A DNA stretch of 64,000 bases from a virus (lineage: Duplodnaviria > Caudoviricetes), in IMG/VR virus record IMGVR_UViG_3300021403_000004, positions 42,871 through 106,870 of that record; one strand, written 5' to 3'. A program made the position numbers and the translations under genes. Every line of letters begins with the position of its first letter. Within the stretch, counting starts at the first letter, position 1. Below are positions 1,312 to 57,028 of this stretch, one piece after another. The notes below the pieces were generated by a model that saw nothing but the letters and a program-made list of their open reading frames with translations, was not told the origin of the DNA and ran no database searches.

Positions 1312-1818
1312 TCACGTGCAGGGGTGATGGCCGTGCCGGGCAAACCACTTGTTCGCCTTGAGGAACCGGCCTTCTCGCCAGAAGCCCCATGCCCGGGACT
1401 TCGGGCCAGTGAGCATCAGCGTCCAGGCCCCGTGCTCGCCCGGGATGACCGTGTGCTGGTGCAGGGCCGGGCGCACCCGGGCTGAGCCTGCCATCAGCAC
1501 GTCATCGCCTGCCGGGCTGCGATCGGTGTAGCAACCGCGCAGCATGACCGTGGCGAACCACCACGGGTGATCATGGAAGGCCCGGTCATCATCCGGCTTC
1601 AGCCAGTGGTGCAGGCGCACCGAGCCAAGCCTTGCCTCCAGCTTCCACCGGATGACGTACGGGCATTGCGGCAGCCCGAGCTTCTCGGCCCAGGTCATCG
1701 TCAGCACCGGGGAATGGTTTCGGGCCACTGACCTCTGCGTAATCTGCGCAGCGCTCTTCCTCTGAGCTACCCCGGTCCGGCGGAAGCCCCCGGACTTCGT
1801 TGGCTCCCACTCGGTCAT
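1312..1818 (-). CDS. Cupin-fold phage protein
   Basis: LHHW..PDDDRAFHDHPWWF...LRGxY motif; ATG lies 7 nt after TGATACTGT (leaderless -10). Confidence 0.7.
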   Translation of the reverse strand: MTEWEPTKSGGFRRTGVAQRKSAAQITQRSVARNHSPVLTMTWAEKLGLPQCPYVIRWKLEARLGSVRLHHWLKPDDDRAFHDHPWWFATVMLRGCYTDRSPAGDDVLMAGSARVRPALHQHTVIPGEHGAWTLMLTGPKSRAWGFWREGRFLKANKWFARHGHHPCT

Positions 1819-1949: not shown

Positions 1950-2072
1950 TCAGGCAGTCCCGGTGCCCTTGCAGTCCTTGCAGGGCACGAAGGTTGATGC
2001 CCCAGGCTCCAGTCCTGAGCCCCCACAGGTGGGGCAGTCTTTCCTGGTTACCCGGATCATGGTGAGGTTCAT
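1950..2072 (-). CDS. 40-aa DnaJ-type zinc-finger miniprotein
   Basis: Own translation MNLTMIRVTRKDCPTCGGSGLEPGASTFVPCKDCKGTGTA has two CxxCxGxG motifs; upstream TGATACTGTAAGA promoter motif. Confidence 0.6.
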   Translation of the reverse strand: MNLTMIRVTRKDCPTCGGSGLEPGASTFVPCKDCKGTGTA

Positions 2073-2090
2073 GACATGTATCTTACAGTA

Positions 2091-3172
2091 TCACAGCTGC
2101 TCTAGCCACCCGAGCAGCTTCCGGGCGTGGCTGGCGAACGTCCGGTCCGCGATGGCCACCTGCGCCTTCCGGGCCGCCTCCTCGCGCTCAGCCTCGTGCC
2201 TGCACCACCAGCGCAGCTGCTCTGCGGCGTCTTCCGGCGTCGCGAACGAGGGCAGCATCCCGAGGACCTCATCGCTTTCCGGCCGCGGGTCCCTGAGGAA
2301 AAACAACCGGGACGCTGCCATCTCCACCTCGCGCGGGCCCATTGCCCAGCCCTCGCCCGCGTGCTCTTCCTCTGATTCCCGGCGGTACAAGTTGATGCCG
2401 CACGCGGCGTGCCGGTACAGCTCAGCCGTCTCGGCATTGTCCACGCAGGCTGCGTCCTGGGACAGGTACGCGCGCAGGGGCGAGCCCTCGCCCGTTTCCT
2501 CTTTCCAGTACGAGCCGCCCAGCAGGAAGTCCAGGCCCGCGAAGCCAGGCTGGGTGACCATTGCCTCAAAGAACCGCACCCGCGATTCAAAGGCCGTGCC
2601 GATGAAGGTGAGGTCCGCGGCCAGCTCCGGGTTGACTGGCCCCGTGCGCGGGTGGTGCACGTCCGGCCGGTACGCGTGCGGGATGTAGTACGCCGGGCCA
2701 AGTTCCTGGTACCGGGCAAGGTTCACGGGGTCGTTGATGAGGTTGATGTCACCGAACGGCGCCCGGGTCAGTTGCTCCGTGTCCTGGTACGGCGATTCCG
2801 TGTGCAGAAGCACTATCTTGTGCCCTCGTGCACGGAGAAGCGCAAACGTCCCAGCTTCAACAAAAAAGGCGCTCACGAACACGATCACCTGGGGCCAGAA
2901 GGAGTAGGTGGCATGCGTGATGCCTTGCATGGACGCGCGGATCGCTTCCAGCTGGTTCATCGCCTGCCGGACGATAGGATGCCCGGTCTCGTCCTTCTCT
3001 TCCGTGTCAATAAGGGCGCGCGAGTAGAAGTAAAGGCGGCCCTTTAAATCATTGGTGTTGTATAGCGCGACCTCGCAACCCTGCTCCCGCAGGCCGTCGG
3101 CCCATCCCCGGTATACGTCCGCAACACTGAAATCAGGGCCGTTAAACCAGGGTGTACTATCAGCACCCTCAT
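2091..3172 (-). CDS. CgeB-like (GT-B) glycosyltransferase whose 5' end is interrupted by an 8-nt insert (candidate translational bypass)
   Basis: AGGAGG RBS and ATG at 3172 give MRVLIVHPG; skipping 3138-3145 continues PDFSVADVYRGW... in frame with ORF 2091-2960 (ADLTFIGT, GINLYR, GPREVEMAA motifs). Confidence 0.75.
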
Positions 3173-3188
3173 GTTGGCATCACCTCCT

Positions 3189-3728
3189 TCACAGCGATTT
3201 CCGCTGTTTACGCTGCAGGTACATCTTTCGGTAATGATCCTTGCGGGCACCACTTGCATTCCTGGCGTTATCCCGCGCCTGAGCGCATGCCCGGCATTCC
3301 CTCTTGCCATTTTTGCGCAGGATGGTATTAGCTTCCGTGAATTCATGCCCTTGCGGGCACTTGTTCTCGCGAACCAGGATAGCAGTCGGGTGCATCCCGC
3401 GGAGCATGTTGACTGACCGGGTCACCGGGTCGCCGTGCCAAGGGTTCACGCAGGCCCGGTTACGGCACAGGTGATCAGGTTCCAGCTCAGGATCGAACTC
3501 GCCACGGTACAGCCGCCAGGCAATCCGGTGCGCTGTCGTTGGCCGCCACTTCCCGTCTCCGCACTTAACATTGAACAGAGCGTAACCTGTCTTCTGGAAG
3601 TGCGCGCCTGACCAGGCCCAGCAAGGTCCCGGGCACAAATCCTCATCCGGTGATGGTGGCCCTGGCAGCAGCTTGGCCTCGAACCGCTTGTGCATATCCC
3701 AGGTAACCGGGATTTGAACTCGTTTCAC
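3189..3728 (-). CDS. HNH homing endonuclease
   Basis: CWAWSG...AHRIAW...DHLCRNRACVNPWH and C-terminal CPQGHEF..N...RECRAC. Confidence 0.9.
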   Translation of the reverse strand: MKRVQIPVTWDMHKRFEAKLLPGPPSPDEDLCPGPCWAWSGAHFQKTGYALFNVKCGDGKWRPTTAHRIAWRLYRGEFDPELEPDHLCRNRACVNPWHGDPVTRSVNMLRGMHPTAILVRENKCPQGHEFTEANTILRKNGKRECRACAQARDNARNASGARKDHYRKMYLQRKQRKSL

Positions 3729-6468: not shown

Positions 6469-7116
6469 CTAGGCCGCCCACTCCAGTGCCCACGCCTCAT
6501 CCGGCACCCCGGTCCAGGGCATCACGCGCCCCCAGCTGACCATCCCCCGCGGGTGGGACAGCACGGCATGGCGCGCGTGCGGCAGGCTGACGCCGACGAC
6601 GAGGCCAGGCACGATCATGGCCTCGTCAGCGCGCCTGGCCGACACCAGGCGCACATCTGCCCTAGGTGACCAAGCCAGCAGCACGTCCAGCACGTCAGCG
6701 ATGCCGGCGCCGTCCTCGCCCCCGGCCATCGCGTGCAGCCGCGCGACCTCCTGCGCAGTCAGCGCCAGGCCCGTGACGGCCAGCAGGTGGTTGGCCACTG
6801 CCGTGGCCGCGCACGTGGGCGCCTCGTCATTGCAGCCCAGCAGCCACCAGCCGGGCAGGACCGCAGGCTGGACGGGAGCGACGGCCGCGGCCTTCTGCAC
6901 CGGGACCTTGCCCTGGCGCTTGGCCGCCTGCGCTGCCCGGCCCGCCGCGGCCCACTTCAGCGCCGCCTGCTTCTGGGCAGCGGACGGCTTCTTGCCCCGG
7001 GCCCGGGCGGTAGCCTGCGCCTTACGGCCGGCAGCGGCGAACTTCTTCCCGGCGGCCACTTGCGCAGGCGTGCGGCCGGCATGCGCGGCAAGCGGGGCCT
7101 TCGGGGCCTTGGCCAT
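6469..7116 (-). CDS. Lys/Ala-rich N-terminus fused to a papain/C39-like domain
   Basis: Basic KKFAAAGRKAQA repeats, then TCAATAVANH, HAV and SWG motifs. Confidence 0.55.
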   Translation of the reverse strand: MAKAPKAPLAAHAGRTPAQVAAGKKFAAAGRKAQATARARGKKPSAAQKQAALKWAAAGRAAQAAKRQGKVPVQKAAAVAPVQPAVLPGWWLLGCNDEAPTCAATAVANHLLAVTGLALTAQEVARLHAMAGGEDGAGIADVLDVLLAWSPRADVRLVSARRADEAMIVPGLVVGVSLPHARHAVLSHPRGMVSWGRVMPWTGVPDEAWALEWAA

Positions 7117-7130
7117 CGTGACCTCCTGGG

Positions 7131-7391
7131 CTAAACGGTATCCCTGGCAGCGTGCGCATAGAAGTACCCGCACCAGAAATGCGCGAATGCCCGGTCTTCG
7201 TCGCCCAGTTCACTGTGGTAGATGACAGCCTGCGCTTCGGCAATCCCGTCCTTGTTGACCGTGACGCTGCCGTCGCCTCCCCGCAAGACCAGCGGGACGC
7301 GCATGACCTCGCGCTCAGTGCCCTCCTCGAACACGATCACGTCGTCGCCCGCGTGCTGGGCAAGGTAGCGCCCGCTTGGCAGCCGTGCCAT
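7131..7391 (-). CDS. Hypothetical protein
   Basis: AGGAGG RBS before MARLPSGRY... Confidence 0.65.
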   Translation of the reverse strand: MARLPSGRYLAQHAGDDVIVFEEGTEREVMRVPLVLRGGDGSVTVNKDGIAEAQAVIYHSELGDEDRAFAHFWCGYFYAHAARDTV

Positions 7392-14745: not shown

Positions 14746-14785
14746 GCGTGCCCACCTCCTGCCAGGTCAGGCCGGACTGCCCCCC

Positions 14786-25998: not shown

Positions 25999-26357
25999 AT
26001 CAGCCTGTCCGCCGCGGCCAGCCGGACCGTGTCGCCCTCGTACCCCTCACCCGACCGCGGCCCGCGGGTGAACACCAGGCACGTGCAGTCCTCCAGGGCC
26101 TCCCAGGCGTGCGCGACCCCCGGCAGCTCGCAGGCCATGTCACCCGGGCCGTACGCGCGGTCCTGCACCAGCCCTTCCTCGTCCCTGGTGACGATGCGCA
26201 GCCGCCCGCGGACCACGTACGTCCACTGGGTGGTCTGGGCATGCACGTGATTACCGCGGATGGACCCGGCCCAGCTGACGATCCGGGTCACGGAGTCCAG
26301 TGGCGTGACCAGGAGGTCCTCAATCAGGCCACGCCCGTCAGCAAAGCTGCTAGGCAT
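25995..26357 (-). CDS. Cupin-fold NDP-sugar isomerase/epimerase
   Basis: F.DGRG.IEDL...GSIRGNH.H...PGVAHA...RGPRSG..YE.DT. Confidence 0.8.
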   Translation of the reverse strand: MPSSFADGRGLIEDLLVTPLDSVTRIVSWAGSIRGNHVHAQTTQWTYVVRGRLRIVTRDEEGLVQDRAYGPGDMACELPGVAHAWEALEDCTCLVFTRGPRSGEGYEGDTVRLAAADRLI

Positions 26358-27480
26358 CAATGACCTCCGGGCTCGGGAGCGGGATGATGAACGCGCCCCT
26401 GTAGCCTGCCGCCCGCAGCTTCGGCATGATGTCGCCGGCAAGGTGCCAGGACAGCAGGAGCGCGTACCCCGGCTGGTCTTCCGTCAGCCGCTTCTCGTCT
26501 GCGACGGGAATTTGCGTGCCCGGGATCAGCGTGCCGATCTTCTCGCTGCCTGGCACCTCGCACACGAGCGTGATGAACCTGGCGATCCCGGCGTAGTGGA
26601 TGAGCGGCGTGGCACGGGTGGCGGCGCCAATGCCGTACACGGACTTCTTCTCCAGGTGAACGGCCCTCCACAGCATGCCGCGCAGTGCCGCGGCGGCGCC
26701 CTCGGCGCGGAACTGCCAGCCCGGCCGCTGCACGCGCGCGCGCATCCGGAATGACCCGCCGTGCACCGGCACCTGCCGGGAGCTGGTCACCCGCATCCCG
26801 TGCCGTTCCAGCAAGGCGCTCAGTGACGCCACCGAGTAATAGCGCAAGTGCTCATGATAAATGGCGTCGACCTGAAGGCCCTCGGTAATGCTCGCCAGGT
26901 CATGGTTCTCCGTGATGAATTCCCCGCCCTCGCCAAGCAGGAGCTGCACGCCATCCAGGAAGTCATGCGGGTCGGGCACGTGCGCGAGGACATTGCACGC
27001 CGTGATGACCGCGGCCGGGCCGTGGTCCTCACGGATCTTCCTGGCCAGTTCCGCGGAGAAGAACTCCTGGTAGCGGATGATTCCCGGGCCGCATTTCAGG
27101 ACCTGGCCGGTAGGCTCGACAGCGGCTTTCCGCAAGCCAGGACCGGGATAGCTGCCCAGCAGCGTCCCGTCATTGGCCCCGATGTCGATGACGAGGTCAT
27201 CCAGGAACAGGGATGAGGCCAGTGAGCTCGCCAGGTCGGCGTAATGCCGCCGCAAGGCTGCGGAGTTACCTGTCGCGTAAGGGTGGTCGGGGCGGAACAG
27301 CTCTTCCTGGCTCACGGTGTGGCTCAGCTGCACGAGCGTGCAGTTACCGCATCGCACGAGCGCGAGCGGGTACCGGGCACTGGCGCTCATGCGCTCGGCG
27401 AGGGGCTGGCGGCCCATGCTGAACAAGGGCCGCAGGCTGGCTGAGCCACAGCCGCCGCATGCCGTGACCTCACCGTCCAC
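26350..27480 (-). CDS. NDP-hexose C-methyltransferase family
   Basis: CxxC...G.QPLA...C..C.LVQL; VIDIGANDG; NVLAH; IYHEHL.YYS; HGGS; LLLSW. Confidence 0.9.
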   Translation of the reverse strand: MDGEVTACGGCGSASLRPLFSMGRQPLAERMSASARYPLALVRCGNCTLVQLSHTVSQEELFRPDHPYATGNSAALRRHYADLASSLASSLFLDDLVIDIGANDGTLLGSYPGPGLRKAAVEPTGQVLKCGPGIIRYQEFFSAELARKIREDHGPAAVITACNVLAHVPDPHDFLDGVQLLLGEGGEFITENHDLASITEGLQVDAIYHEHLRYYSVASLSALLERHGMRVTSSRQVPVHGGSFRMRARVQRPGWQFRAEGAAAALRGMLWRAVHLEKKSVYGIGAATRATPLIHYAGIARFITLVCEVPGSEKIGTLIPGTQIPVADEKRLTEDQPGYALLLSWHLAGDIMPKLRAAGYRGAFIIPLPSPEVIDA

Positions 27481-28015
27481 TATCGCTCCTGCGATGCAGG
27501 TAATTATGCTCTGCCGGAGACAGCCAGATGCAGTTACCTGGCTCGTAATCACCATCAGTGTCCAACCGGTGCAGGTGCCAGTAAGGAGCTGGTGACGGCC
27601 CCATGTCAGCCAGGAAATTCGGGAATCCATCACGTCCGGTCCAGCGGGCGCACACCTTAATGCCGCGCCCCCCGTAACGGGCGTAGGACTTATTGGCCGG
27701 GTCTTCACAGCGTCGGCGCACGCCCTGCCATAGCGTGTAGTTCGGATGATGACTGAGTCCGTGCCTGAACTGCATGCCAGACGTCCGGCAATGCTCCGCG
27801 ACTTTCCTGGCCTTCAGGCACCCGCATGACTTCCGGTGACCACTCCGCAAGCTTGCGCCCGGAGCCACGACGACAGCGCCACAGGCGCACTCGCAACGGT
27901 AAGTCCTGTACCCGTTTTTACTCCCTGCGTACTCCAGCACGGTCAGCAGCCCGTAAGCATCTCCCGGCTTAACTGACGGCGGCCGTCCGCGACCGATACC
28001 ACGCGACGCCGTCAC
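27470..28015 (-). CDS. HNH-type homing endonuclease
   Basis: YG.LTV...CECACG...LRSG..KSCGC; RC...YGGRGIKVC.RW...FLADMG...G.YEPGNC.W. Confidence 0.85.
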   Translation of the reverse strand: MTASRGIGRGRPPSVKPGDAYGLLTVLEYAGSKNGYRTYRCECACGAVVVAPGASLRSGHRKSCGCLKARKVAEHCRTSGMQFRHGLSHHPNYTLWQGVRRRCEDPANKSYARYGGRGIKVCARWTGRDGFPNFLADMGPSPAPYWHLHRLDTDGDYEPGNCIWLSPAEHNYLHRRSDSGR

Positions 28016-38966: not shown

Positions 38967-39132
38967 TGCGGGTTCCGGGTCCTTCCGGGTCAGGAACGAC
39001 CCGGCTCCCTGAAAATGGCCGCGGGCATGTTAAAGCACAGCGTACGCCACATGACGCCGTTTAGCACACGCTAGCCGGCGCGTTCGCGGCCCTGCCGTTA
39101 AATCAGACCCGGAAAGACACGGGAATGCCCGC

Positions 39133-43695: not shown

Positions 43696-43883
43696 GGTGC
43701 CGTCACCACGGCCTTCAGGCTGGCCGTGAACTCCTGCCACGCGCCAGCCGGGAACTCCAGCACAGTGCGGCACGCGCTCCCGGCTTGCTTGGTGTCGCGC
43801 ACGCCCACCCCTCCACGGGCCGTGCCAGCCTCCACGCACAGAGCCTGGTTATGCGTGTAGCTGGATGTGCGCCAGCCGTTCAC
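43692..43883 (-). CDS. DUF397 protein
   Basis: WRTSSY...CVE...VRDTK...LEF...AW..F. Confidence 0.85.
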   Translation of the reverse strand: MNGWRTSSYTHNQALCVEAGTARGGVGVRDTKQAGSACRTVLEFPAGAWQEFTASLKAVVTAP

Positions 43884-44199
43884 TCCGGCGGCCTCCCCTC
43901 CGTGAAGTCCACGTACGTGACCGCCCTGGGAACGTCTCGCAGCACGAGCCGCGCAAGCGGGCTGCTGCTGACAGGGCAGTTGCTGAACGACGCGCCCCTG
44001 GCCATCACAGCCCCGCACTGGTCGTCGTCAGCCGGGCGTAAATGCCGCCCGTGAGGATCTCCGCATCGCCGGCGCACGCGCCCTGGCTGTTGCTGAACAC
44101 GGTCTTTCTCCCTTCATCATGGCGGCTGCCGCTCACTGCTGAGCCGCCTGTGAACCTTGTCCCTGGACAGAGCATACAGCAAGAGACTCTGTGCCGTGC

Positions 44200-48131: not shown

Positions 48132-48229
48132 TTAATGCCAGGGGATGGCCCTCGGGCTGCTTGATGACTTGCGGACAGCACGCGAACTGTCCTGAACACC
48201 GAGAACGTCAGCAGCGGTGAGCACGCAAG

Positions 48230-48298
48230 CACCCCTGCCAGGAGTCGAACCTGGCGGCTGGATTTAGGAAACCCGGCGCCGGGTCCGCCGGCAGGGGC
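48230..48298 (-). tRNA. tRNA-Arg(CCT), reduced D arm
   Basis: GCCCCTG/CAGGGGT acceptor; loop TTCCTAA; GGTTCGACTCC. Confidence 0.8.
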
Positions 48299-48299
48299 C

Positions 48300-48374
48300 T
48301 GGAGTCGCGCCCGGGAGTCGAACCCGGCTTCGCACGGTTTGCAATCGTGCCCCCGCGCCAGCGAGACGCGCGAC
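48300..48374 (-). tRNA. tRNA-Cys(GCA)
   Basis: Loop TTGCAAA; U73 and encoded CCA. Confidence 0.88.
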
Positions 48375-48375
48375 A

Positions 48376-48447
48376 TGGTGTCCCCGTCCGGAGTCGGACC
48401 GGATAGCATTCCTTCGGAGGGAAGGCAGCAGGTCCGCTGCCAGGGAC
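48376..48447 (-). tRNA. tRNA-Arg(CCG)
   Basis: TTCC CTCCGAA GGAA; encoded CCA. Confidence 0.8.
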
Positions 48448-48448
48448 A

Positions 48449-48523
48449 GGAGCCCCTGTCCGATTCGAACGGGTACTCCATTGCCAGCCGCGCGGCCAGC
48501 GGAGACCAATCCAGGGTAGGGGC
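48449..48523 (-). ncRNA. tRNA-like element with a 19-nt anticodon loop
   Basis: GCCCCT/AGGGGC acceptor, TTCGAAT T loop; CTCCG [CTGGC CGCGCGG CTGGC AA] TGGAG. Confidence 0.6.
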
Positions 48524-48533
48524 CTGAACACAG

Positions 48534-48615
48534 TGCGCGACATAGGATTCGAACCTACTCAGCCATAGCACCTGATTTACAGTCAGGTTCCGCTCGCCAT
48601 CTCGGACGATCGCGC
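48534..48615 (-). tRNA. tRNA-Tyr(GTA)
   Basis: CCTGA CTGTAAA TCAGG; variable arm. Confidence 0.9.
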
Positions 48616-48618
48616 AAG

Positions 48619-48718
48619 GAGGGTTTCCGCGGCCATTGAACCCGGCAGGTCACGGCTGGCTGCGGTTCGCGGGGCCGGGAGCCTGCCTGAGTCCGGCGTG
48701 CCGCACGAGGATGCCCTC
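48619..48718 (-). ncRNA. Candidate long hairpin ncRNA
   Basis: Nested pairings GAGGG/CCCTC, GCGGC/GCCGC, GGACTC/GGGTTC, GGCAGG/CCTGCC. Confidence 0.5.
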
Positions 48719-48737
48719 AACCCCGGCTATTCAAGAG

Positions 48738-48811
48738 GGTGATCACCCGGGTTCGATCCGGGACTTTCAGAGTCACAGTCTGACGTGCAGGGCCACTACA
48801 CCATGACCACC
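48738..48811 (-). tRNA. tRNA-His(GTG) with G-1
   Basis: TCAGA CTGTGAC TCTGA; GGTGGTCA/TGATCACC. Confidence 0.9.
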
Positions 48812-48829
48812 ATGAGCGCTTGCGCGCTG

Positions 48830-48902
48830 TACACGGAGTGGGACTCGAACCCACGATACCCTGTTTGTAGGACAGGAGCCTTAGCCGCTAGACGACCCGT
48901 GC
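48830..48902 (-). tRNA. tRNA-Val(TAC), C33
   Basis: CCTGT CCTACAA ACAGG. Confidence 0.88.
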
Positions 48903-48950
48903 ATGAACACTCCGGTCACTTGCTGATGACGCCCCCGGAACCAGGCTCCA

Positions 48951-49025
48951 TGGTACAGTCACCGGGATTCGAACCCGAAATAAGAGATTCGTAGTCTCTC
49001 GTGATATCCGTTTCACCATGACTGC
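48951..49025 (-). tRNA. tRNA-Arg(ACG)
   Basis: AGAGA CTACGAA TCTCT; encoded CCA. Confidence 0.92.
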
Positions 49026-49026
49026 G

Positions 49027-49099
49027 CGCTGATGAAGAGAATCGAACTCTCGGCCCTCCGCTCGACAGGCGGACGCTCTAACCCCTGAGCTACACCAGC
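49027..49099 (-). tRNA. tRNA-Asp(GTC)
   Basis: TCCGC CTGTCGA GCGGA. Confidence 0.9.
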
Positions 49100-49107
49100 T
49101 TGCTAGC

Positions 49108-49701
49108 TTACTCAACGTCTTTATATGTAAGCCTACGTTTTATCATCGATACCGCAGTCCGTGAAATATCATACCGGGCACCGATATCTCGTGTTGTACC
49201 ACTTGCTAGGCGAATTTCACGCACCTGATCTTCCGTCAGGGTGGAATTACCCGACCTTACGCCTGACACCCCTGGATTTGGTATGCCCTGATTTACAGCC
49301 GACAAGCGGTGACGCGCTTCTTCAGACCATATGCGGTCTTTTCCGCCGACACCGTGACTACCGGAGACCGCGTTAAGCAAATTAGTCCCCGGTATCTTGA
49401 ACAGGAGATCTGTCCAATATTCCTCAGCTTTCCAGCGGTCAGCTACGCACACTTCCTGCACTACCAGAAATTGAGGTGGTTCCGGCAACGTCACCAGCCA
49501 CCCGGCCACGTGAGTTGATTTAGCGAAACGGCTCGCCCAGTGCAGCCGAACACGCTCCTGCGCACCTAGTTTAGTGGAGCCAACATACCGGATGGCGTCT
49601 CTATCAAACAGTACGTAAATATCAGCCATGTCTTGTGCATGACGCTTGCGTAGCCACTCTTGCTGATAGGTACGCCGCATCTTAGAATCTGCATAGGGCA
49701 C
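49108..49701 (-). CDS. GIY-YIG homing endonuclease with NUMOD3/HTH tail, inside the tRNA operon
   Basis: IYVL...RYVGST; E..W...LLN; SEEARHRLS; LTEDQVREIR HTH; lower GC; TATACT -10. Confidence 0.8.
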   Translation of the reverse strand: MPYADSKMRRTYQQEWLRKRHAQDMADIYVLFDRDAIRYVGSTKLGAQERVRLHWASRFAKSTHVAGWLVTLPEPPQFLVVQEVCVADRWKAEEYWTDLLFKIPGTNLLNAVSGSHGVGGKDRIWSEEARHRLSAVNQGIPNPGVSGVRSGNSTLTEDQVREIRLASGTTRDIGARYDISRTAVSMIKRRLTYKDVE

Positions 49702-49717
49702 CTACCCAGTATACCTG

Positions 49718-49788
49718 CTCTCCCACCTGGATTCGAACCAGAATTAAATGGTTAACAGCCATCCGTTCTGCCGTTGAACTATAGGAGA
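49718..49788 (-). tRNA. tRNA-Asn(GTT)
   Basis: GATGG CTGTTAA CCATT. Confidence 0.92.
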
Positions 49789-49825
49789 TTAGTGCCCGAT
49801 TATAGCCTCGGAGCCAGGCTGGCAG

Positions 49826-49899
49826 TGGCGGAGGCGTGATTCGAACACGCGATCTTCAGGTTATGAGCCTGACGAGGTACCTAGCTCCTCTACTCCGCA
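49826..49899 (-). tRNA. tRNA-Met(CAT), initiator-like
   Basis: TCAGG CTCATAA CCTGA; 1:72 mismatch. Confidence 0.88.
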
Positions 49900-49900
49900 G

Positions 49901-49971
49901 TCGTCCTACAGGGATTCGAACCCTGTTCTCAGCCTTGAAAGGGCTGGGGCCTACCTATAGCCGATAGGACG
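49901..49971 (-). tRNA. tRNA-Glu(TTC)
   Basis: CAGCC CTTTCAA GGCTG. Confidence 0.9.
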
Positions 49972-49975
49972 CGAG

Positions 49976-50048
49976 CGCTCGCACCGGGGCTTGAACCCGG
50001 GATCTCCTGCTTGAGGGGCAGGCGACTTCACCGCTTGTCCACGCGAGC
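49976..50048 (-). tRNA. tRNA-Glu(CTC), C33
   Basis: CCTGC CCCTCAA GCAGG. Confidence 0.88.
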
Positions 50049-50052
50049 TCAG

Positions 50053-50122
50053 CACAGCGCCAGGGAGTCGAACCCTGTTTCCGCGGCTTAGAAGACCGCT
50101 GCACGTATCCGCCGTGCGCTGC
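50053..50122 (-). tRNA. tRNA-Arg(TCT), reduced D arm
   Basis: GCGGT CTTCTAA GCCGC. Confidence 0.85.
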
Positions 50123-50123
50123 A

Positions 50124-50198
50124 TGGTGCCTCCGTGGGGACTCGAACCCCAGTACGCGGGGTAAAAGCCCGCTGTCCTTGCCGCTAAACGACAGAGGC
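50124..50198 (-). tRNA. tRNA-Lys(TTT)
   Basis: GCGGG CTTTTAC CCCGC; encoded CCA. Confidence 0.9.
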
Positions 50199-50203
50199 GC
50201 GAG

Positions 50204-50274
50204 TCGGGATACCGGGTGCCGCCCCCGGGTGACTGGCTTATGAGACCAGCGGTTTACTGTTAGCCTATATCCCA
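50204..50274 (-). tRNA. tRNA-CAT (elongator Met or Ile2), atypical T loop
   Basis: CTGGT CTCATAA GCCAG; T loop GGCGGCA. Confidence 0.75.
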
Positions 50275-50275
50275 G

Positions 50276-50347
50276 TGGGATCGCAGGGAATCGAACCCTG
50301 ATCACGTCCTTATAAGAGGCGCATCCTCACCATTAAACGACGATCCA
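50276..50347 (-). tRNA. tRNA-Ile(TAT)
   Basis: Loop CTTATAA; GGTTCGATTCC. Confidence 0.85.
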
Positions 50348-50348
50348 G

Positions 50349-50425
50349 TCGTACGGGAAGGACTTGAACCTTCGTGTCACCAGTTACCCTTTCGGCTCCT
50401 TATCAGGGAGAGGGGATACCGTACG
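50349..50425 (-). tRNA. Rewired tRNA-Ile(GAT) with the D-loop 3' of the anticodon arm
   Basis: CGTACGG TA TCCCCT CTCC-CTGATAA-GGAG CCGAA AGGG TAACTGGTGACAC GAAGG-TTCAAGT-CCTTC CCGTACG A. Confidence 0.75.
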
Positions 50426-50429
50426 CACG

Positions 50430-50513
50430 AGGAAGAACGACGAGTCGAACGCCACGGGTCACCCCGCGATCCGCTTTCAAGGCGGTCCCAGGCACCGGCC
50501 TGGATGATCTTCC
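50430..50513 (-). tRNA. tRNA-Ser(TGA), 8/4-type fold
   Basis: CCGC CTTGAAA GCGG; long variable arm; 4-bp T stem. Confidence 0.85.
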
Positions 50514-50520
50514 GGAAGAA

Positions 50521-50611
50521 CTCAGTGCCCCACCCGGGGAGCGCCCGGCCACGGGTACCTAGGATCACGCGGAATTGAACCGCGCCGCCAGGACTTGAAC
50601 CTGTCACTGAG
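50521..50611 (-). ncRNA. Double-T-loop tRNA-sized RNA without an anticodon arm
   Basis: CTCAGTG/CACTGAG closing stem; CAGG-TTCAAGT-CCTG and GCGCGG-TTCAATT-CCGCGT in tandem. Confidence 0.7.
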
Positions 50612-50615
50612 AAAG

Positions 50616-50700
50616 CAGAAGGCGGAGGGCACGATCCCCAGGGCTGTCACGCCCCCGGCTCGCTAGCAACGAGTGCCTGGCCCCGCCAGGTTCGCCTTCC
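50616..50700 (-). tRNA. tRNA-Ser(GCT), 8/4-type fold
   Basis: CTCG TTGCTAG CGAG; GGAAGGCG/CGCCTTCT acceptor. Confidence 0.82.
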
Positions 50701-50701
50701 A

Positions 50702-50778
50702 TGGTACCCCAGGCGGGATTCGAACCCGCAGCATCGCCGGATCTGAACCGGAGTGGTCGGCCAGTTGCCTACCGGGGC
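50702..50778 (-). tRNA. tRNA-Leu(CAG), short variable region
   Basis: CCGG TTCAGAT CCGG; encoded CCA. Confidence 0.88.
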
Positions 50779-50779
50779 A

Positions 50780-50855
50780 TGGAGTAGATGACGGGACTCG
50801 AACCCGCAACCATTACCTTGGCAAGGTAATACGCTACCAATTGCGCCACATCTAC
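50780..50855 (-). tRNA. tRNA-Gly(GCC)
   Basis: TTACC TTGCCAA GGTAA; U73, CCA. Confidence 0.93.
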
Positions 50856-50859
50856 GCAG

Positions 50860-50930
50860 AGCGAGCGACGGGAATCGGACCCGCGCCTCGACCTTGGGAA
50901 GGTCACGTGCTGCCATTGCACCACGCTCGC
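50860..50930 (-). tRNA. tRNA-Gly(CCC)
   Basis: TGACC TTCCCAA GGTCG. Confidence 0.9.
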
Positions 50931-50932
50931 AT

Positions 50933-51025
50933 GACAGGAACGGGCAGCTAATCCGCCGGGATTCCGGAACTCCCGATTGCGCCGCTTCCGCCGGTAAGAG
51001 CCTTTGCGCTAGCGCTTTTCCTGCC
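50933..51025 (-). ncRNA. Candidate structured ncRNA
   Basis: GGCAGGAA/TTCCTGTC closing stem, GCTAG/TTAGC, CGGGA/TCCCG hairpin. Confidence 0.5.
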
Positions 51026-51026
51026 G

Positions 51027-51100
51027 AGCCTGACGCCGGATTCGAACCGGCGACCCTCGCCTTACCACGGCGATGCTCTCACCACTGGAGCTAGTCAGGC
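51027..51100 (-). tRNA. tRNA-Thr(GGT)
   Basis: TCGCC GTGGTAA GGCGA. Confidence 0.9.
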
Positions 51101-51102
51101 AG

Positions 51103-51170
51103 AGCCGCGATCCGGTGCCGGCCCGGACCTGCTTCCTTACAAGGGAAGCGTCACAGCCGTGTGCCGCGGC
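51103..51170 (-). tRNA. tRNA-Thr(TGT), minimal D arm and atypical T loop
   Basis: CTTCC CTTGTAA GGAAG; T loop GCCGGCA. Confidence 0.75.
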
Positions 51171-51174
51171 ATTG

Positions 51175-51247
51175 CTGTCCGCCCAGGACTCGAACCTGGA
51201 ATCGCCGGGACCAAAACCCGGAGAGCTGCCTGTTGCCCTAGCGGACA
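51175..51247 (-). tRNA. tRNA-Gln(TTG)
   Basis: CCGGG TTTTGGT CCCGG. Confidence 0.88.
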
Positions 51248-51252
51248 CTGCT

Positions 51253-51306
51253 GCTGCCATTATCACGTTGACAGGTCTCCCTGCTTTCGGGGTCGTTCTA
51301 GGCAGC
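51253..51306 (-). ncRNA. Candidate small ncRNA
   Basis: GCTGCC/GGCAGC closing stem and CAGG-GAGA-CCTG GNRA hairpin. Confidence 0.4.
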
Positions 51307-51322
51307 TTCATGACTGTCCCCG

Positions 51323-51403
51323 TGCGCGAGGCGGGAATCGAACCCGCAAGACCGAGGTCGCTGCCTCCTCAAGGCAGTGCGTTTACCGTTTCACCACTCA
51401 CGC
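51323..51403 (-). tRNA. tRNA-Leu(GAG)
   Basis: CTGCC TTGAGGA GGCAG; variable arm. Confidence 0.9.
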
Positions 51404-51407
51404 AAGG

Positions 51408-51478
51408 CTTCCCTTCAAGGACTCGAACCTCAATCGCCAGAGTCAGATTCTGGCATCCTGCCATTAGACGAAAGGGAA
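51408..51478 (-). tRNA. tRNA-Gln(CTG)
   Basis: CCAGA ATCTGAC TCTGG. Confidence 0.9.
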
Positions 51479-51484
51479 TTAAAG

Positions 51485-51558
51485 TGCGCAGCCCGGGATT
51501 CGAACCCGGAGCATCACTGGTTTTGGGCCAGCGTGGTCGGCCAGTTGCCTAGCCGCGC
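51485..51558 (-). tRNA. tRNA-Leu(CAA), C33, short variable region
   Basis: GCTGG CCCAAAA CCAGT; D arm identical to Leu(CAG). Confidence 0.85.
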
Positions 51559-51562
51559 AGGA

Positions 51563-51637
51563 GCAGCAGTTTCATGCTCCCGGTACTTCAGGACTGATCG
51601 GGCCCTGGTTGCCGGGACGAGCAGTGCCCCCGCTGCC
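51563..51637 (-). ncRNA. Candidate hairpin ncRNA with a loop-E-like internal loop
   Basis: GCAGCGG/CTGCTGC, TCCCGG/CCGGGA, CAGGGC/GTCCTG; internal loop CAAC/AAGTA. Confidence 0.5.
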
Positions 51638-51650
51638 GGGCATGCCTGCG

Positions 51651-51724
51651 TGCGCCGCGAGGGACTTGAACCCCCAACTCCCGACTTAAGAGGACGGTAC
51701 TCTAACCAGTTGAGTTAGCGGCAC
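51651..51724 (-). tRNA. tRNA-Lys(CTT)
   Basis: Loop CTCTTAA; canonical D and T arms. Confidence 0.9.
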
Positions 51725-51830
51725 GTAGTTGTTGCACATATTCACGTCTTGCATCTTTACAGTCATCACATTTTGGCGGCCCACAAAGGGCTGCGGTCCC
51801 CTTGCAGTCCCGCAGTGGCCTCGCGAGCAG

Positions 51831-51899
51831 AGCCTGACCTCAGAATCGGACTGAGCGATCTTCCCGTACGAAGGGACGACGTGACCCAGCACGTCAGGC
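51831..51899 (-). tRNA. tRNA-Thr(CGT), minimal D arm
   Basis: TCCC TTCGTAC GGGA; GCCTGAC/GTCAGGC. Confidence 0.78.
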
Positions 51900-51950
51900 A
51901 TGAAGCTCGTCCCGGTTGGGCGCGCGATGGCTTATTGAGGACGAGCTCCG

Positions 51951-52021
51951 AAGGGCAGGCGGGAATCGAACCCGCATCTTCTGCTTGGAAGGCAGAGGGC
52001 CTGCCATTAACTGACTGCCCC
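51951..52021 (-). tRNA. tRNA-Gly(TCC)
   Basis: TCTGC CTTCCAA GCAGA. Confidence 0.9.
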
Positions 52022-52030
52022 GTAAAAAGC

Positions 52031-52107
52031 GACCGGACTGCACCCGCAAAACGGTGCGGAAGCCAGGACTGCTTGCAGTTGCGACTTATCTCCTTTGCAG
52101 TCCAGCC
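52031..52107 (-). ncRNA. Candidate structured ncRNA
   Basis: 12-bp closing stem GGCTGGACTGCA/TGCAGTCCGGTC with internal stems. Confidence 0.55.
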
Positions 52108-52109
52108 GG

Positions 52110-52183
52110 TGCCTGCTCCCTGGATCGAACAGGGGGCCTCTGCATTTTCAGTGCAACGCTCATTCCGACTGAGCTAAGCAGGC
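52110..52183 (-). tRNA. tRNA-Phe(GAA)
   Basis: TTGCA CTGAAAA TGCAG. Confidence 0.9.
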
Positions 52184-52263
52184 ATGCGGGCGCTGTTTTT
52201 CCGCGGCGCCTAGAAGGCCGCGCCCGGTCTTGCGTCCCTCCCTCCGGAGGGAACCGCTTTCCC

Positions 52264-52406
52264 GCTGGTGTGCTGTTACGCCAGGGCAGTGCGCCGTTTG
52301 CCTTCCCGCCCGCCAGCGTCTGCACTGTCACCGCGCAGGCCCTCAGACAAGAAGCGGCATGACCGCGCTCTTTCAAGGATGGCTGCCTTTAAGCCCACCT
52401 TCCAGC
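52264..52406 (-). ncRNA. 23S rRNA H43/H44 (L11-binding, GTPase-associated centre) mimic RNA with an 86-nt insertion
   Basis: GCTGG AAGGTGGGCTTAAAGGCAGCCATCCTTGAAAGAG [86 nt] GCGTAACAGCACA CCAGC aligns to 23S nt ~1051-1108 with compensatory changes. Confidence 0.82.
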
Positions 52407-52410
52407 CGGG

Positions 52411-52483
52411 TCGGGTACCCCTGAGTCGAACAGGGTGCTTCCTGCTCCCAAAGCAGGCGGGTTAACCGTCTCCCTCGTACCCG
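52411..52483 (-). tRNA. tRNA-Pro(TGG)
   Basis: CCTGC TTTGGGA GCAGG. Confidence 0.88.
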
Positions 52484-52521
52484 TCATGCCTTAGCCAGGC
52501 CTTTCAGCCCATGAAGCCGAG

Positions 52522-52593
52522 TCGGGCACCCCTGAATCGAACAGGGTCTCTCCTGCATCCCGAGCAGGCAGATTGCCATCTTCCCCGTACCCG
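52522..52593 (-). tRNA. tRNA-Pro(GGG), C33
   Basis: CCTGC TCGGGAT GCAGG. Confidence 0.85.
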
Positions 52594-52597
52594 AAAG

Positions 52598-52669
52598 TCA
52601 GCCCCCCGGGAGTCGAACCCGGTTTCTCCTCGATCCGAACGAGGCAGATTACCGTCTTCCTCGAAGCTG
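52598..52669 (-). tRNA. tRNA-Pro(CGG)
   Basis: CCTCG TTCGGAT CGAGG. Confidence 0.88.
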
Positions 52670-52675
52670 GCGACG

Positions 52676-52747
52676 TGGAGACTGAGGGAATCGAACCCTC
52701 TGCGTCAACGCTTGCAAAGCGCGACCGCTGCCTTAGCTGTAATCCCC
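52676..52747 (-). tRNA. tRNA-Ala(TGC)
   Basis: Loop TTTGCAA; G3:U70. Confidence 0.85.
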
Positions 52748-52752
52748 GTGCG

Positions 52753-52825
52753 TGGAACCTGCGAGGCTTGAACTCGCGACCTCGTGCGTGCCACGCACGT
52801 GCTCTCCCAGCTGAGCTAAGGCCCC
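52753..52825 (-). tRNA. tRNA-Ala(GGC)
   Basis: CGTGC GTGGCAC GCACG; G3:U70. Confidence 0.92.
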
Positions 52826-52892
52826 ATCTGCCCAGGCGGGCCCGGTCGAGCAGGCGCATGCGCGCCCTCCCGCGGTCCCTGGGCAATGCTCA

Positions 52893-52932
52893 CCACTGTT
52901 GAGTTCTCAAGTAAGCCCCCGTCATGCGGGGA
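52893..52932 (-). promoter_or_regulatory. rrn-type boxB hairpin plus boxA antitermination signal
   Basis: CCCCG-CATGA-CGGGG followed by CTTGAGAACTCAACAG, as in actinobacterial rRNA leaders. Confidence 0.75.
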
Positions 52933-52934
52933 AG

Positions 52935-53006
52935 CTGGCCGCCGAGGAATCGAACCCCGACCAAGAGGTTTGGAAGCTCTTGTGCTTGCCGTTACACCAG
53001 CAGCCA
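52935..53006 (-). tRNA. tRNA-Trp(CCA)
   Basis: Loop TTCCAAA; canonical D and T arms. Confidence 0.88.
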
Positions 53007-56000: not shown

Positions 56001-56759
56001 CTACCCGAGCACGTACCCTAGCAGCGCGTCGCCTGCCTGCCGGTCCTGCACGACGAGCGCGTTAGCCTGCTCGCGAGCGAACTTCACCGCGTGCAGGACC
56101 TCCGTCGCCCTGGCGCGCATGGCCTGGATGTCCTTGGCAGGCAGCTGCCCGGAGAACCGCACCGTCGTCCAGTATCCCTCAATGACGTCACTCTCGTAGG
56201 TGCGCACCTGCGCCGGGTGCTCCGGGGTAGCCTCGTACAGGACCTGCACCTGCGGGACCTTCTTGGTGCGCTCGGCCTGCCGGGGCGCGGACTTCCAGAC
56301 GCCCGCCTGGAGTGCCGGGCCGGCGTCGCTCCACTCCTGCGCCGGGTCCAGCTCCGGCAGCCGCTCGATCAACTGCGTGATGAGCTGGCCGAGCTGCGCC
56401 TCCAGGAACAGCAGGTACCCGGCCGGGACATCACGCACCAAGACGGTGCCGTCCTTGAGCGTGATGTCGGCGCGGGCACTGCAGTTGGCGTACTCGCGGG
56501 TGAACTTCAGGTCTAGCAGCCGGGTCAGGTGCTCCCGGGCACTGTCGACCAGTTCTCGCGCGGTGATCTGCACCTTGCGGTTCTGCGGCGGGAGCTGATC
56601 GCCCTCGTCACCGCGCCGCGACTCATACGTCCGGGAAATGCCCGTCAGCGGGTCGTTGTCGCCGCCGATGGCGAGCACGTGCCGGATCTTGGCCAGGTGC
56701 TGGTCAGTGTCGGCCACCACCCCGCGCTCAATGGCTATCACCTGGTGCAATGCGGTCAT
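56001..56759 (-). CDS. Conserved actinobacterial coiled-coil protein of unknown function
   Basis: L.Q.IA.E.G...GI.RTY....G..LP.....Q...VP..YLLFLE.QL...LP.LDP...LYEAT.EHPAQV...G.W....FSG.LP...AVK.ARE.AN. Confidence 0.8.
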   Translation of the reverse strand: MTALHQVIAIERGVVADTDQHLAKIRHVLAIGGDNDPLTGISRTYESRRGDEGDQLPPQNRKVQITARELVDSAREHLTRLLDLKFTREYANCSARADITLKDGTVLVRDVPAGYLLFLEAQLGQLITQLIERLPELDPAQEWSDAGPALQAGVWKSAPRQAERTKKVPQVQVLYEATPEHPAQVRTYESDVIEGYWTTVRFSGQLPAKDIQAMRARATEVLHAVKFAREQANALVVQDRQAGDALLGYVLG

Positions 56760-57028
56760 GACGGCTCCTTCGTGAGGCCTCGCCGGGCTTGATCTGATTG
56801 GCTCGCTGTCGCGGTGTGGCTGCGGGCTTAACGGATTGACCGGCTGTGACCAGCCGGGCAGCACGAGGCAGGACCGGGTCAGGGGCGGGGTCGGACCATC
56901 CCCGGTCCTGCACTGTCATCGTACCGTAATGCAAGACCGGGAGATACCGCAACAAGTTTCAGGCCCGGAAGTCACGTGCGCAAGCACATCAACGGTGGCT
57001 GGCTGTCCTGGCTTGGCTGCGTGCCTGG

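Follow-up and report, generated by a model that had tools for sequence, protein, structure and literature searches.

How a phage could obtain a full-length protein from a gene whose reading frame breaks after nine codons is the question raised by a glycosyltransferase gene in the stretch of DNA analyzed here (the window: 64,000 nucleotides, positions 42,871 to 106,870 of IMG/VR record IMGVR_UViG_3300021403_000004). At the break stands an in-frame TTA codon, which opens an insert of 8 nucleotides (nt) relative to intact homologues, and a second TTA-led insert of 9 nt lies about 30 codons further on. The comparative evidence points to a short translational bypass, in which a ribosome stalled at UUA would hop from a GGU to a GGC codon, and the probability of this reading is estimated at roughly 65%. 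That UUA is recoded at all, by whatever mechanism, is considered very likely.

The gene and both of its inserts read on the minus strand. A strong Shine-Dalgarno sequence, GAAGGAGG (3183–3190), is followed 10 nt further on by the start codon ATG (3172–3170), and the first nine codons (M R V L I V H P G, frame 0; 3146–3172) give the same N-terminus as in intact homologues. They close with CAC CCT GGT, in which GGT (Gly; 3146–3148) is the final frame-0 codon that agrees with the homologues. The in-frame TTA, the proposed slow A-site codon, comes next (3143–3145), then AC, the putative landing codon GGC (Gly; 3138–3140), which like GGT can be read by tRNA-Gly(GCC), and CCT GAT TTC. Frameshift-aware alignment to the intact homologue P0002 places the 8 nt to be passed over, TTAAC plus GGC, at 3138–3145, and writing the insert as 3139–3146 is equally valid. 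The resumed frame (PDFSV... to the TGA at 2093–2091; 2091–3137) is displaced by 8 nt, equivalent to −1. It is open from 3179 to its stop, and a scan of this open stretch finds no ATG, GTG or TTG upstream of 2960. Simple decoding of the TTA at 3145 would lead after 42 codons to a TAA (3044–3046) and a product of 42 amino acids (aa), while an 8-nt hop would join 9 and 348 residues into a protein of 357. The first-pass annotation of this DNA had read the layout, the GGU-to-GGC arithmetic and the early stop at 3044 in the same way, and direct reading of the strand bears it out. It had also proposed a second bypass element, which consists of GAT (3050–3048) and TTA AAG GGC (3047–3039) in the same frame, followed by CGC (element 3039–3050). 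Alignment to homologues confirms a 9-nt insert here between Asp and Arg codons; the hop itself stands less firmly, since an in-frame insert may just be decoded.

Both stretches are gap-free in homologues (HPG-PDFSV and TND-RL; the window's open frame aligned with 28 relatives), as the same annotation had predicted for HPGPxFSV and NDRL, and they are therefore true inserts. Full-length relatives of 350–357 residues start with MR(V/I)L(I/V)VHPGPDFSV and carry an uninterrupted NTNDRL; of the 4,320 candidates in the protein search, 1,836 were relatives. With a single metagenomic contig and a short indel in AT-rich sequence, an assembly or sequencing artefact might be suspected. However, contigs from a further DNA run (X3, 2911–3361) and from two metatranscriptome runs (X4, 2971–3347; X5, 2880–3200) have 0 differences and 0 gaps against the window, in a comparison of contigs rather than reads, where minority variants may hide and RNA libraries can contain DNA. 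X1, which may be the source sample, does not count as independent. The insert over 3138–3145 is therefore no assembly error, which answers the check proposed in the annotation, and similar inserts are found in many contigs from different samples, sometimes with the same sequence (L002–L005; L029–L033; L063–L068 with L071). An artefact can practically be dismissed. Across the 106,870-bp genome the motif TTTAA is found only about ten times, with two of the copies 98 nt apart in the glycosyltransferase gene, and the TTA inserts in this gene are more than chance.

The family of related genes was surveyed in 173 loci, comprising 80 retained out of 445 from IMG/VR, 13 from genomes and 80 retained out of 421 from metagenomes. 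The 5′ parts of 172 related loci and of the window were aligned to P0002 by frameshift-aware dynamic programming (two loci were too short). The 123 unique complete genes divide into 24 with frame-breaking TTA-led inserts, 11 with in-frame TTA-led inserts only and 88 that are insert-free. All but one of the latter (87/88) are continuous open reading frames (ORFs), the exception being L153, in which a T-run is longer by one T; of the 25 interrupted genes, 24 thus break exactly at an in-frame TTA. The TTA-led inserts are 2–10 nt long, fall within the first 40 codons and are confined to reference codons 7–11 (the HPGPD loop), codon 16 and codons 36–39 (NxND-RL). TTA is contained in 39 of 41 insertions at reference codons 6–17 and 35–41, the other two being 1-nt T-run cases, and whole-codon indels at these codons are absent from TTA-less full-length genes (this test flagged four rows, three of them truncated by the contig end and the fourth being L153 with its 1-nt insertion). 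No second frame appears in the C-terminal 245 residues in any of 174 sequences. Outside the inserts TTA accounts for only 5 of 38,352 codons past codon 45, all in three genes, and for 2 of 5,625 aligned N-terminal codons. Apparent frameshifts lacking TTA in L063, L071, L087, L167, L046, L152 and L156 were rejected as compensating pairs placed by the aligner in divergent stretches.

The inserts share a common anatomy. In every frame-breaking case the TTA stands in the upstream frame, right after the last codon that matches the homologues, and the general form is N1N2[x TTA, 0–5 nt, N1N2]N3, that is, a take-off codon, TTA, a gap and a like codon before the point of resumption. In all 15 unique sequences of the 7- and 8-nt class, the take-off and landing codons encode the same amino acid (GGT..GGC in the window; GGT..GGT, CCA..CCA, CCG..CCG, CCT..CCC, GAT..GAC and CGA..CGG elsewhere). 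Over all distinct motifs, 21 of 30 are pairable at all three positions with G.U allowed, against 2.5 expected (binomial 5e-13). A take-off at GAT or AAT with a gap ending in GGC occurs in six motifs (L035, L104, L041, L165, L016 and the window's second insert), and the GAT-to-GGC pair of the window's second element is the same in L035, L041 and L165. If G.U is allowed, GGC would pair with the anticodons GUC and GUU, with a central G.U in the case of tRNA-Asp(GUC). Take-off codons end in T in 22 of 31 motifs, in A in 7, in G in 2 and never in C, the genes themselves having G or C at most third positions, and landing codons mostly end in C; by hopping, the tRNA may thus give up a weak wobble pair in favor of a stronger one. 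In 15 of the 19 out-of-frame motifs a G or A follows TTA, so that a +1 slip at the stall would meet UAG or UAA. Insert lengths of 1, 4, 7 and 10 nt occur as well as 2, 5 and 8 nt, and because both frame classes are present, one direction of frameshifting cannot serve all.

Between pairs of interrupted genes, the nonsynonymous rate (dN) is far below the synonymous rate (dS) in each of the three segments, despite their different frames. For the window and L002, codons 1–9 show 0 nonsynonymous changes at 20.2 sites and 8 synonymous changes at 6.8 sites; the corresponding values are 7.5 at 69.8 and 17.5 at 20.2 for codons 10–39, and 30.2 at 176.8 and 38.8 at 57.2 for codons 40–117. As judged from these substitutions, every segment of the interrupted genes is under purifying selection, which argues that each of them is translated into protein sequence. 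The inserts themselves turn over quickly. The insert states require 24 changes on a tree built from residues past codon 45, no fewer than 13–15 of them forced by well-supported branches, and near-identical genes differ in the insert alone: L134 and L125 by a 4-nt block, with 19 mismatches over about 1,140 nt, L104 and L097 by a 10-nt block, and L142 and L155 by a single G, which sets an in-frame version beside an out-of-frame one. Inserts have therefore often been gained or lost.

Under a bypass, translation would begin at the ATG at 3172 and read nine codons, after which the ribosome would pause at the very rare UUA in its A site while peptidyl-tRNA-Gly still sits on GGU. This tRNA would unpair, the mRNA would slip by 8 nt and pairing would form again on GGC; decoding would then restart at CCU and produce the uninterrupted HPG-PDFSV loop of intact homologues. 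About 30 codons on, a further hop from GAU over UUA AAG onto GGC, with a G.U middle pair, is conceivable; otherwise the three codons would be read, and in-frame inserts in general may be either hopped or read. The phage encodes the tRNAs that would hop, tRNA-Gly(GCC) (50780–50855, minus strand), which reads the take-off and landing codons of the first element, and tRNA-Asp(GUC) (49026–49099, minus strand), the take-off tRNA of the second. Its Leu tRNAs have the anticodons CAG, GAG and CAA only, with none for UUA or CUA among the 30 tRNAs found by ARAGORN. A hop of this kind could account for all insert lengths with one mechanism, and its dependence on low Leu-tRNA(UAA), a sensing of host tRNA and a regulatory role are all inferred.

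A UUA-linked bypass has been proposed before in a phage terminase. Antonov et al. (2023; PMC10732093) revisit the proposal of Smith et al. (2013) that two 10-nt UUA-led blocks in the phiHau3 terminase are bypassed. They deal with the large terminase of phiHau3 (g6/g7/g8) and with two prophage terminases, UUA-containing interrupted genes making up 3 of 100 terminase genes, and describe the bypass hypothesis as “mostly languishing unknown.” The full-length product was detected in Streptomyces, the junction peptide was found in E. coli once UUA was changed to UAA, and a +1-frame stop in the gap doubled recoding, which gives bypass in phiHau3 partial experimental support (PMC10732093). In the GenBank record, the phiHau3 junctions read GGC, TTA CTC C, GGT and TCT, TTA ACG G, TCC, each a 10-nt shift. 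The window gene resembles them in having an in-frame UUA after a sense take-off codon, a short gap and a synonymous landing codon before the codon of resumption, as well as insert-free homologues with a conserved junction and a high-GC actinophage setting. The phiHau3 g7/g8 gap (L174, 2924–2940) and the window insert also have the octamer TTTAACGG in common, which may reflect chance or a favored gap sequence. TTTAACG is seen again in L136 and L041.

By contrast, the gene affected here is a glycosyltransferase and not an essential terminase, its sites lie within the first 40 codons, its shifts span 2–10 nt (7 or 10 in the terminases), and in-frame inserts occur beside frame-breaking ones. Inserts are also found in 35 of 123 unique genes, compared with the 3 of 100 terminase genes (PMC10732093), and the host, Streptomyces for phiHau3, may be a different one here. 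In its sequence layout the window gene would nevertheless belong with UUA bypass of the phiHau3 type. The bypass reading of the first-pass annotation thus finds comparative support in the TTA-led breaks, the matched codons, the two frame classes, the selection on each segment and the phiHau3-like layout.

Several observations weigh against such a bypass. Nine of the 30 motifs are not fully pairable, although eight of these pair at two positions. In the 4- and 5-nt inserts the landing codon always mismatches at its first position; in 2-, 4- and 5-nt inserts positions 2 and 3 match, with the exception of GGA to AGT. The landing codons were set by the alignment made here and by the assumption of a product with no net indel, and the distinct motifs are phylogenetically non-independent. 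Flanks capable of re-pairing would also be expected if the inserts arose as codon duplications, and in-frame inserts, which add Leu plus Gly or Pro, might simply be tolerated by the loop. A stall after just nine residues makes a nascent-peptide signal of the gene 60 type impossible; short peptidyl-tRNAs are, moreover, prone to drop-off. The 176-nt fold of 3020–3195 is no more stable than shuffled sequences (z −0.41). Finally, L002 and L153 have a 1-nt break in a T-run without TTA.

These T-run breaks consist of an extra T in a GAY-TTY run at reference codons 11–12, in L002–L005 (at about locus position 3006–3010) and L153 (about 236). The former are four contigs from four samples with one sequence, in which a TTA hop at the insert site called B would be needed too (CGA TTATC CGG). 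The extra T may be met by a +1 slip of tRNA-Phe on UUU_U/C, or may be real damage.

Among the rival explanations, a ribosomal frameshift at or just after UUA would restore the frame of the window gene by a −1 (or +2) shift, with the gap read and two or three residues added to the loop; for the 7-nt relatives it would take the form of a +1 shift, or of UUAR read as a four-base codon. An in-frame CCT TTA CCC and a +1-read CCT TTAG CCC would indeed give the same HPG-PL-PDF product, L158 has the canonical slippery heptamer G GGT TTA, and for phiHau3 the authors could not beforehand exclude +1 frameshifting (PMC10732093). However, the window's T GGT TTA is no X XXY YYZ heptamer, so that a canonical −1 programmed frameshift was rejected for it, and GGU slipped to UGG would pair poorly. 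A +1 slip runs into UAG or UAA in the 15 of 19 out-of-frame motifs mentioned above, and both frame classes occur at the same sites in one family. Frameshifting also leaves the matched flanking codons without a part to play, and loop length at the junction is constant in TTA-less genes. The loop concerned is the β1-α1 loop of the enzyme, and since the first-strand loop of GT4-like enzymes lines the active-site cleft, additional residues there are plausibly harmful. Frameshifting is thus regarded as unlikely.

The gene could also be inactive, or yield only a truncated 289-aa product from the ATG at 2960, the inserts being tolerated damage. Gene callers do annotate that 289-aa protein (P0003) as the record of the window's gene, and the relatives P0012, P0014 and P0016 are called short in the protein database as well. 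The breaks are non-random, however, with 24 of 25 at an in-frame TTA in the first 40 codons and none in the C-terminal part. Codons 1–9 and 10–39 are still under purifying selection, each in its own frame, and the Shine-Dalgarno sequence and ATG are retained. On the P0002 model, the product starting at 2960 would have an N-terminal Rossmann domain that lacks its first four strands and two helices. Inactivation or truncation is accordingly held to be improbable. Removal of the insert from the RNA before translation, by editing or a tiny splice, would likewise restore the frame and has no direct support. Both contigs from RNA libraries keep the insert and no joint was reported, with the limit that these are contigs only and that the libraries may hold DNA. 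No system is known to remove 2–10 nt with such varied ends, and this explanation is highly improbable.

Bypass at UUA also invites comparison with other hopping systems. It is like T4 gene 60 in a take-off at Gly toward a matching Gly codon, in a slow A-site codon and in an adjoining gene of the homing endonuclease type. However, the gap is 8 nt here and 50 nt there, the slow codon is a rare sense codon and not a stop, and neither an in-gap take-off stem-loop nor a nascent-peptide signal is seen here. Membership in the gene 60 type was therefore rejected on the 8-nt gap and the nine residues made, and the likeness is confined to take-off and landing. Short hops at hungry or stop codons in E. 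coli, reportedly described by Weiss and colleagues in 1987 and by Gallant and Lindsley as low-level events in reporters, share the short-range re-pairing of a peptidyl-tRNA to a nearby matching codon at a starved A site, whereas the layout here is conserved and selected in natural genes. The mitochondrial byp elements of Magnusiomyces capitatus, said to have been reported by Lang and colleagues in 2014 as 27–55 nt long and furnished with stem-loops, are likewise many short, mobile-looking inserts in coding sequences that are skipped between matching codons, with high turnover among relatives; the inserts here differ in their length of 2–10 nt, in having no evident internal structure and in their UUA trigger.

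The association with an endonuclease deserves attention. An HNH endonuclease gene lies directly upstream of the glycosyltransferase gene (3189–3728, minus strand; Pfam HNH_3 4.2e-8, phrog_826 4.6e-37), with its stop at the 5′ edge of the Shine-Dalgarno sequence. An HNH gene or remnant occupies this place in seven unique rows (the window, L002, L006, L020, L142, L155 and L158), and TTA inserts are present in 7 of 7 such rows and in 28 of 116 others (Fisher 9.5e-5). By independent contrasts the association is not significant, with three contrasts only, from which the sign test cannot reach significance. The T4 mobA homing endonuclease is said, in work by Bonocora and colleagues from 2011, to form a cassette with gene 60. 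By analogy, a homing endonuclease cassette could have its immunity half in the TTA mini-inserts, a proposal that is rather doubtful at present. The HNH endonuclease would cut the conserved 5′ coding sequence of insert-free phages, and an insert of 2–10 nt would break the target and let carriers of the endonuclease escape, at no cost as long as ribosomes hop at the rare UUA. Inserts would outlast the endonuclease and turn over rapidly in an arms race. If true, this would explain the clustering in the first 40 codons, the genes that differ only by an insert and the interchange of in-frame and out-of-frame versions, and would possibly tie recoding inserts to homing endonucleases beyond the T4 group. 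T4 gene 60 and mobA are also treated in bioRxiv 2022.08.31.505936 and 2024.12.09.627546.

Literature searches found no description of TTA inserts in phage glycosyltransferase genes, only the terminases of PMC10732093, and further papers may exist. Unexplained frameshifts in Streptomyces phages of cluster BI are reported in PMC9671017, the accessible portion of which makes no mention of TTA. UUA bypass has so far been represented by three terminase genes (four sites) with partial experiments (PMC10732093). To these the glycosyltransferase family would add about 30 distinct natural combinations of take-off, gap and landing at three sites and from many soil samples, which makes it the largest set of natural cases so far for a decoding trick with little documentation. 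Rules that can now be tested include a preference for NNU take-off codons with none ending in C, NNC landing codons, a purine after UUA, shifts down to 2 nt, and a G.U-tolerant landing of tRNA-Asp and tRNA-Asn on GGC. Gene callers systematically truncate such genes.

The protein encoded by the resumed frame is a CgeB-like glycosyltransferase, 83% identical to P0002 (355 aa), with a match to Pfam PF13524 (Glyco_trans_1_2) over residues 201–353 (E 8.5e-11; score 42.4 bits, gathering cut-off 25). An AlphaFold2 model of P0002, not of the window's own product, has a predicted local distance difference test score (pLDDT) of 95.5 and the two-Rossmann-domain GT-B fold, and its top Foldseek matches are the GT4-type sucrose-phosphate synthase, MshA, PimA and BshA (E 5e-13 to 6e-11). 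In this model, site A (the first insert site) falls in the nearly invariant β1-α1 loop between strand 1 (residues 2–6) and helix 1 (14–27), and the second site at the start of helix 2. Across 72 sequences D16 never varies, and P8, G9, S13 and V14 each reach at least 90% conservation. PHROGs holds no family for the glycosyltransferase, and neither near-identity nor protein searches of the cultured-phage collection matched the region.

RNA structure around the first site is limited to a possible 5′ hairpin in the minimum free energy fold (3149–3169, minus strand), in which AGGGUG (3169–3164) would pair with CACCCU (3154–3149) across a 9-nt loop. Its six base pairs, joining codons 2–3 with codons 7–8, stop one base short of the take-off codon. 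For phiHau3, a stem-loop and a Shine-Dalgarno-like sequence have been proposed as 5′ stimulators. The first 30 nt fold at −8.3 kcal/mol in the 27 loci with a site-A insert and at −5.7 in the others (Mann-Whitney p 5e-5), a raw comparison that ignores relatedness and composition.

The window is part of a single 106,870-bp contig of 67% G+C, which bears genes for a portal and a head-tail adaptor together with 30 tRNA genes and is therefore a phage. Its portal is 29.7–34.5% identical to those of cultured Mycobacterium and Gordonia actinophages (the 15 best of 785 records), and 11 of the 13 loci with glycosyltransferase homologues in bacterial assemblies are in Actinomycetota; from these relatives, the host of this uncultured phage is judged to be a high-GC actinobacterium. 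Within a crude set of 107 ORFs, TTA makes up 18 of 23,834 codons in the genome. Eleven of these 18 in-frame TTAs fall within the first 35 codons (for example in ORFs 6469–7173, 26352–27708 and 43882–44077), and many such early TTAs may lie upstream of the true starts. In the only one that was checked, an in-frame CCG TTA AGC CCG in ORF 56001–56864, the TTA is upstream of the likely true start and was rejected. Besides the known site, a genome-wide scan for in-frame TTA at frame breaks gave five places with a looser filter and four with a stricter one, one of them shared, and two were inspected closely. Genome position 14773 was rejected as a second recoding site for want of a pairable landing codon, as was 35086, where the upstream ORF stops three codons past the TTA and the start in the other frame is 48 codons on, in the manner of neighboring genes. 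Two TTTAA motifs at 39030 and 39098 (minus strand), 68 nt apart, lie in an AT-richer intergenic spacer upstream of the portal gene and are therefore no recoding sites; one of them reads TTTAACGG, as the insert does.

Most of the tRNA genes (29) form an array at 48229–53006 on the minus strand, and the set includes tRNAs for rare codons (Arg-CCU, Leu-CAA and, by the ARAGORN call, Ile-UAU). The 30th, tRNA-Ile(GAU), stands alone at 1704–1776 (minus strand) and overlaps the first 37 codons of a cysteine-dioxygenase-like ORF (1312–1839). Because of this overlap and of a PHROG match that begins only at residue 38, the true start of that ORF is probably downstream of the called one. Just past the glycosyltransferase gene, a 40-codon ORF (1950–2072, minus strand) has two CxxC pairs and resembles a small zinc ribbon.

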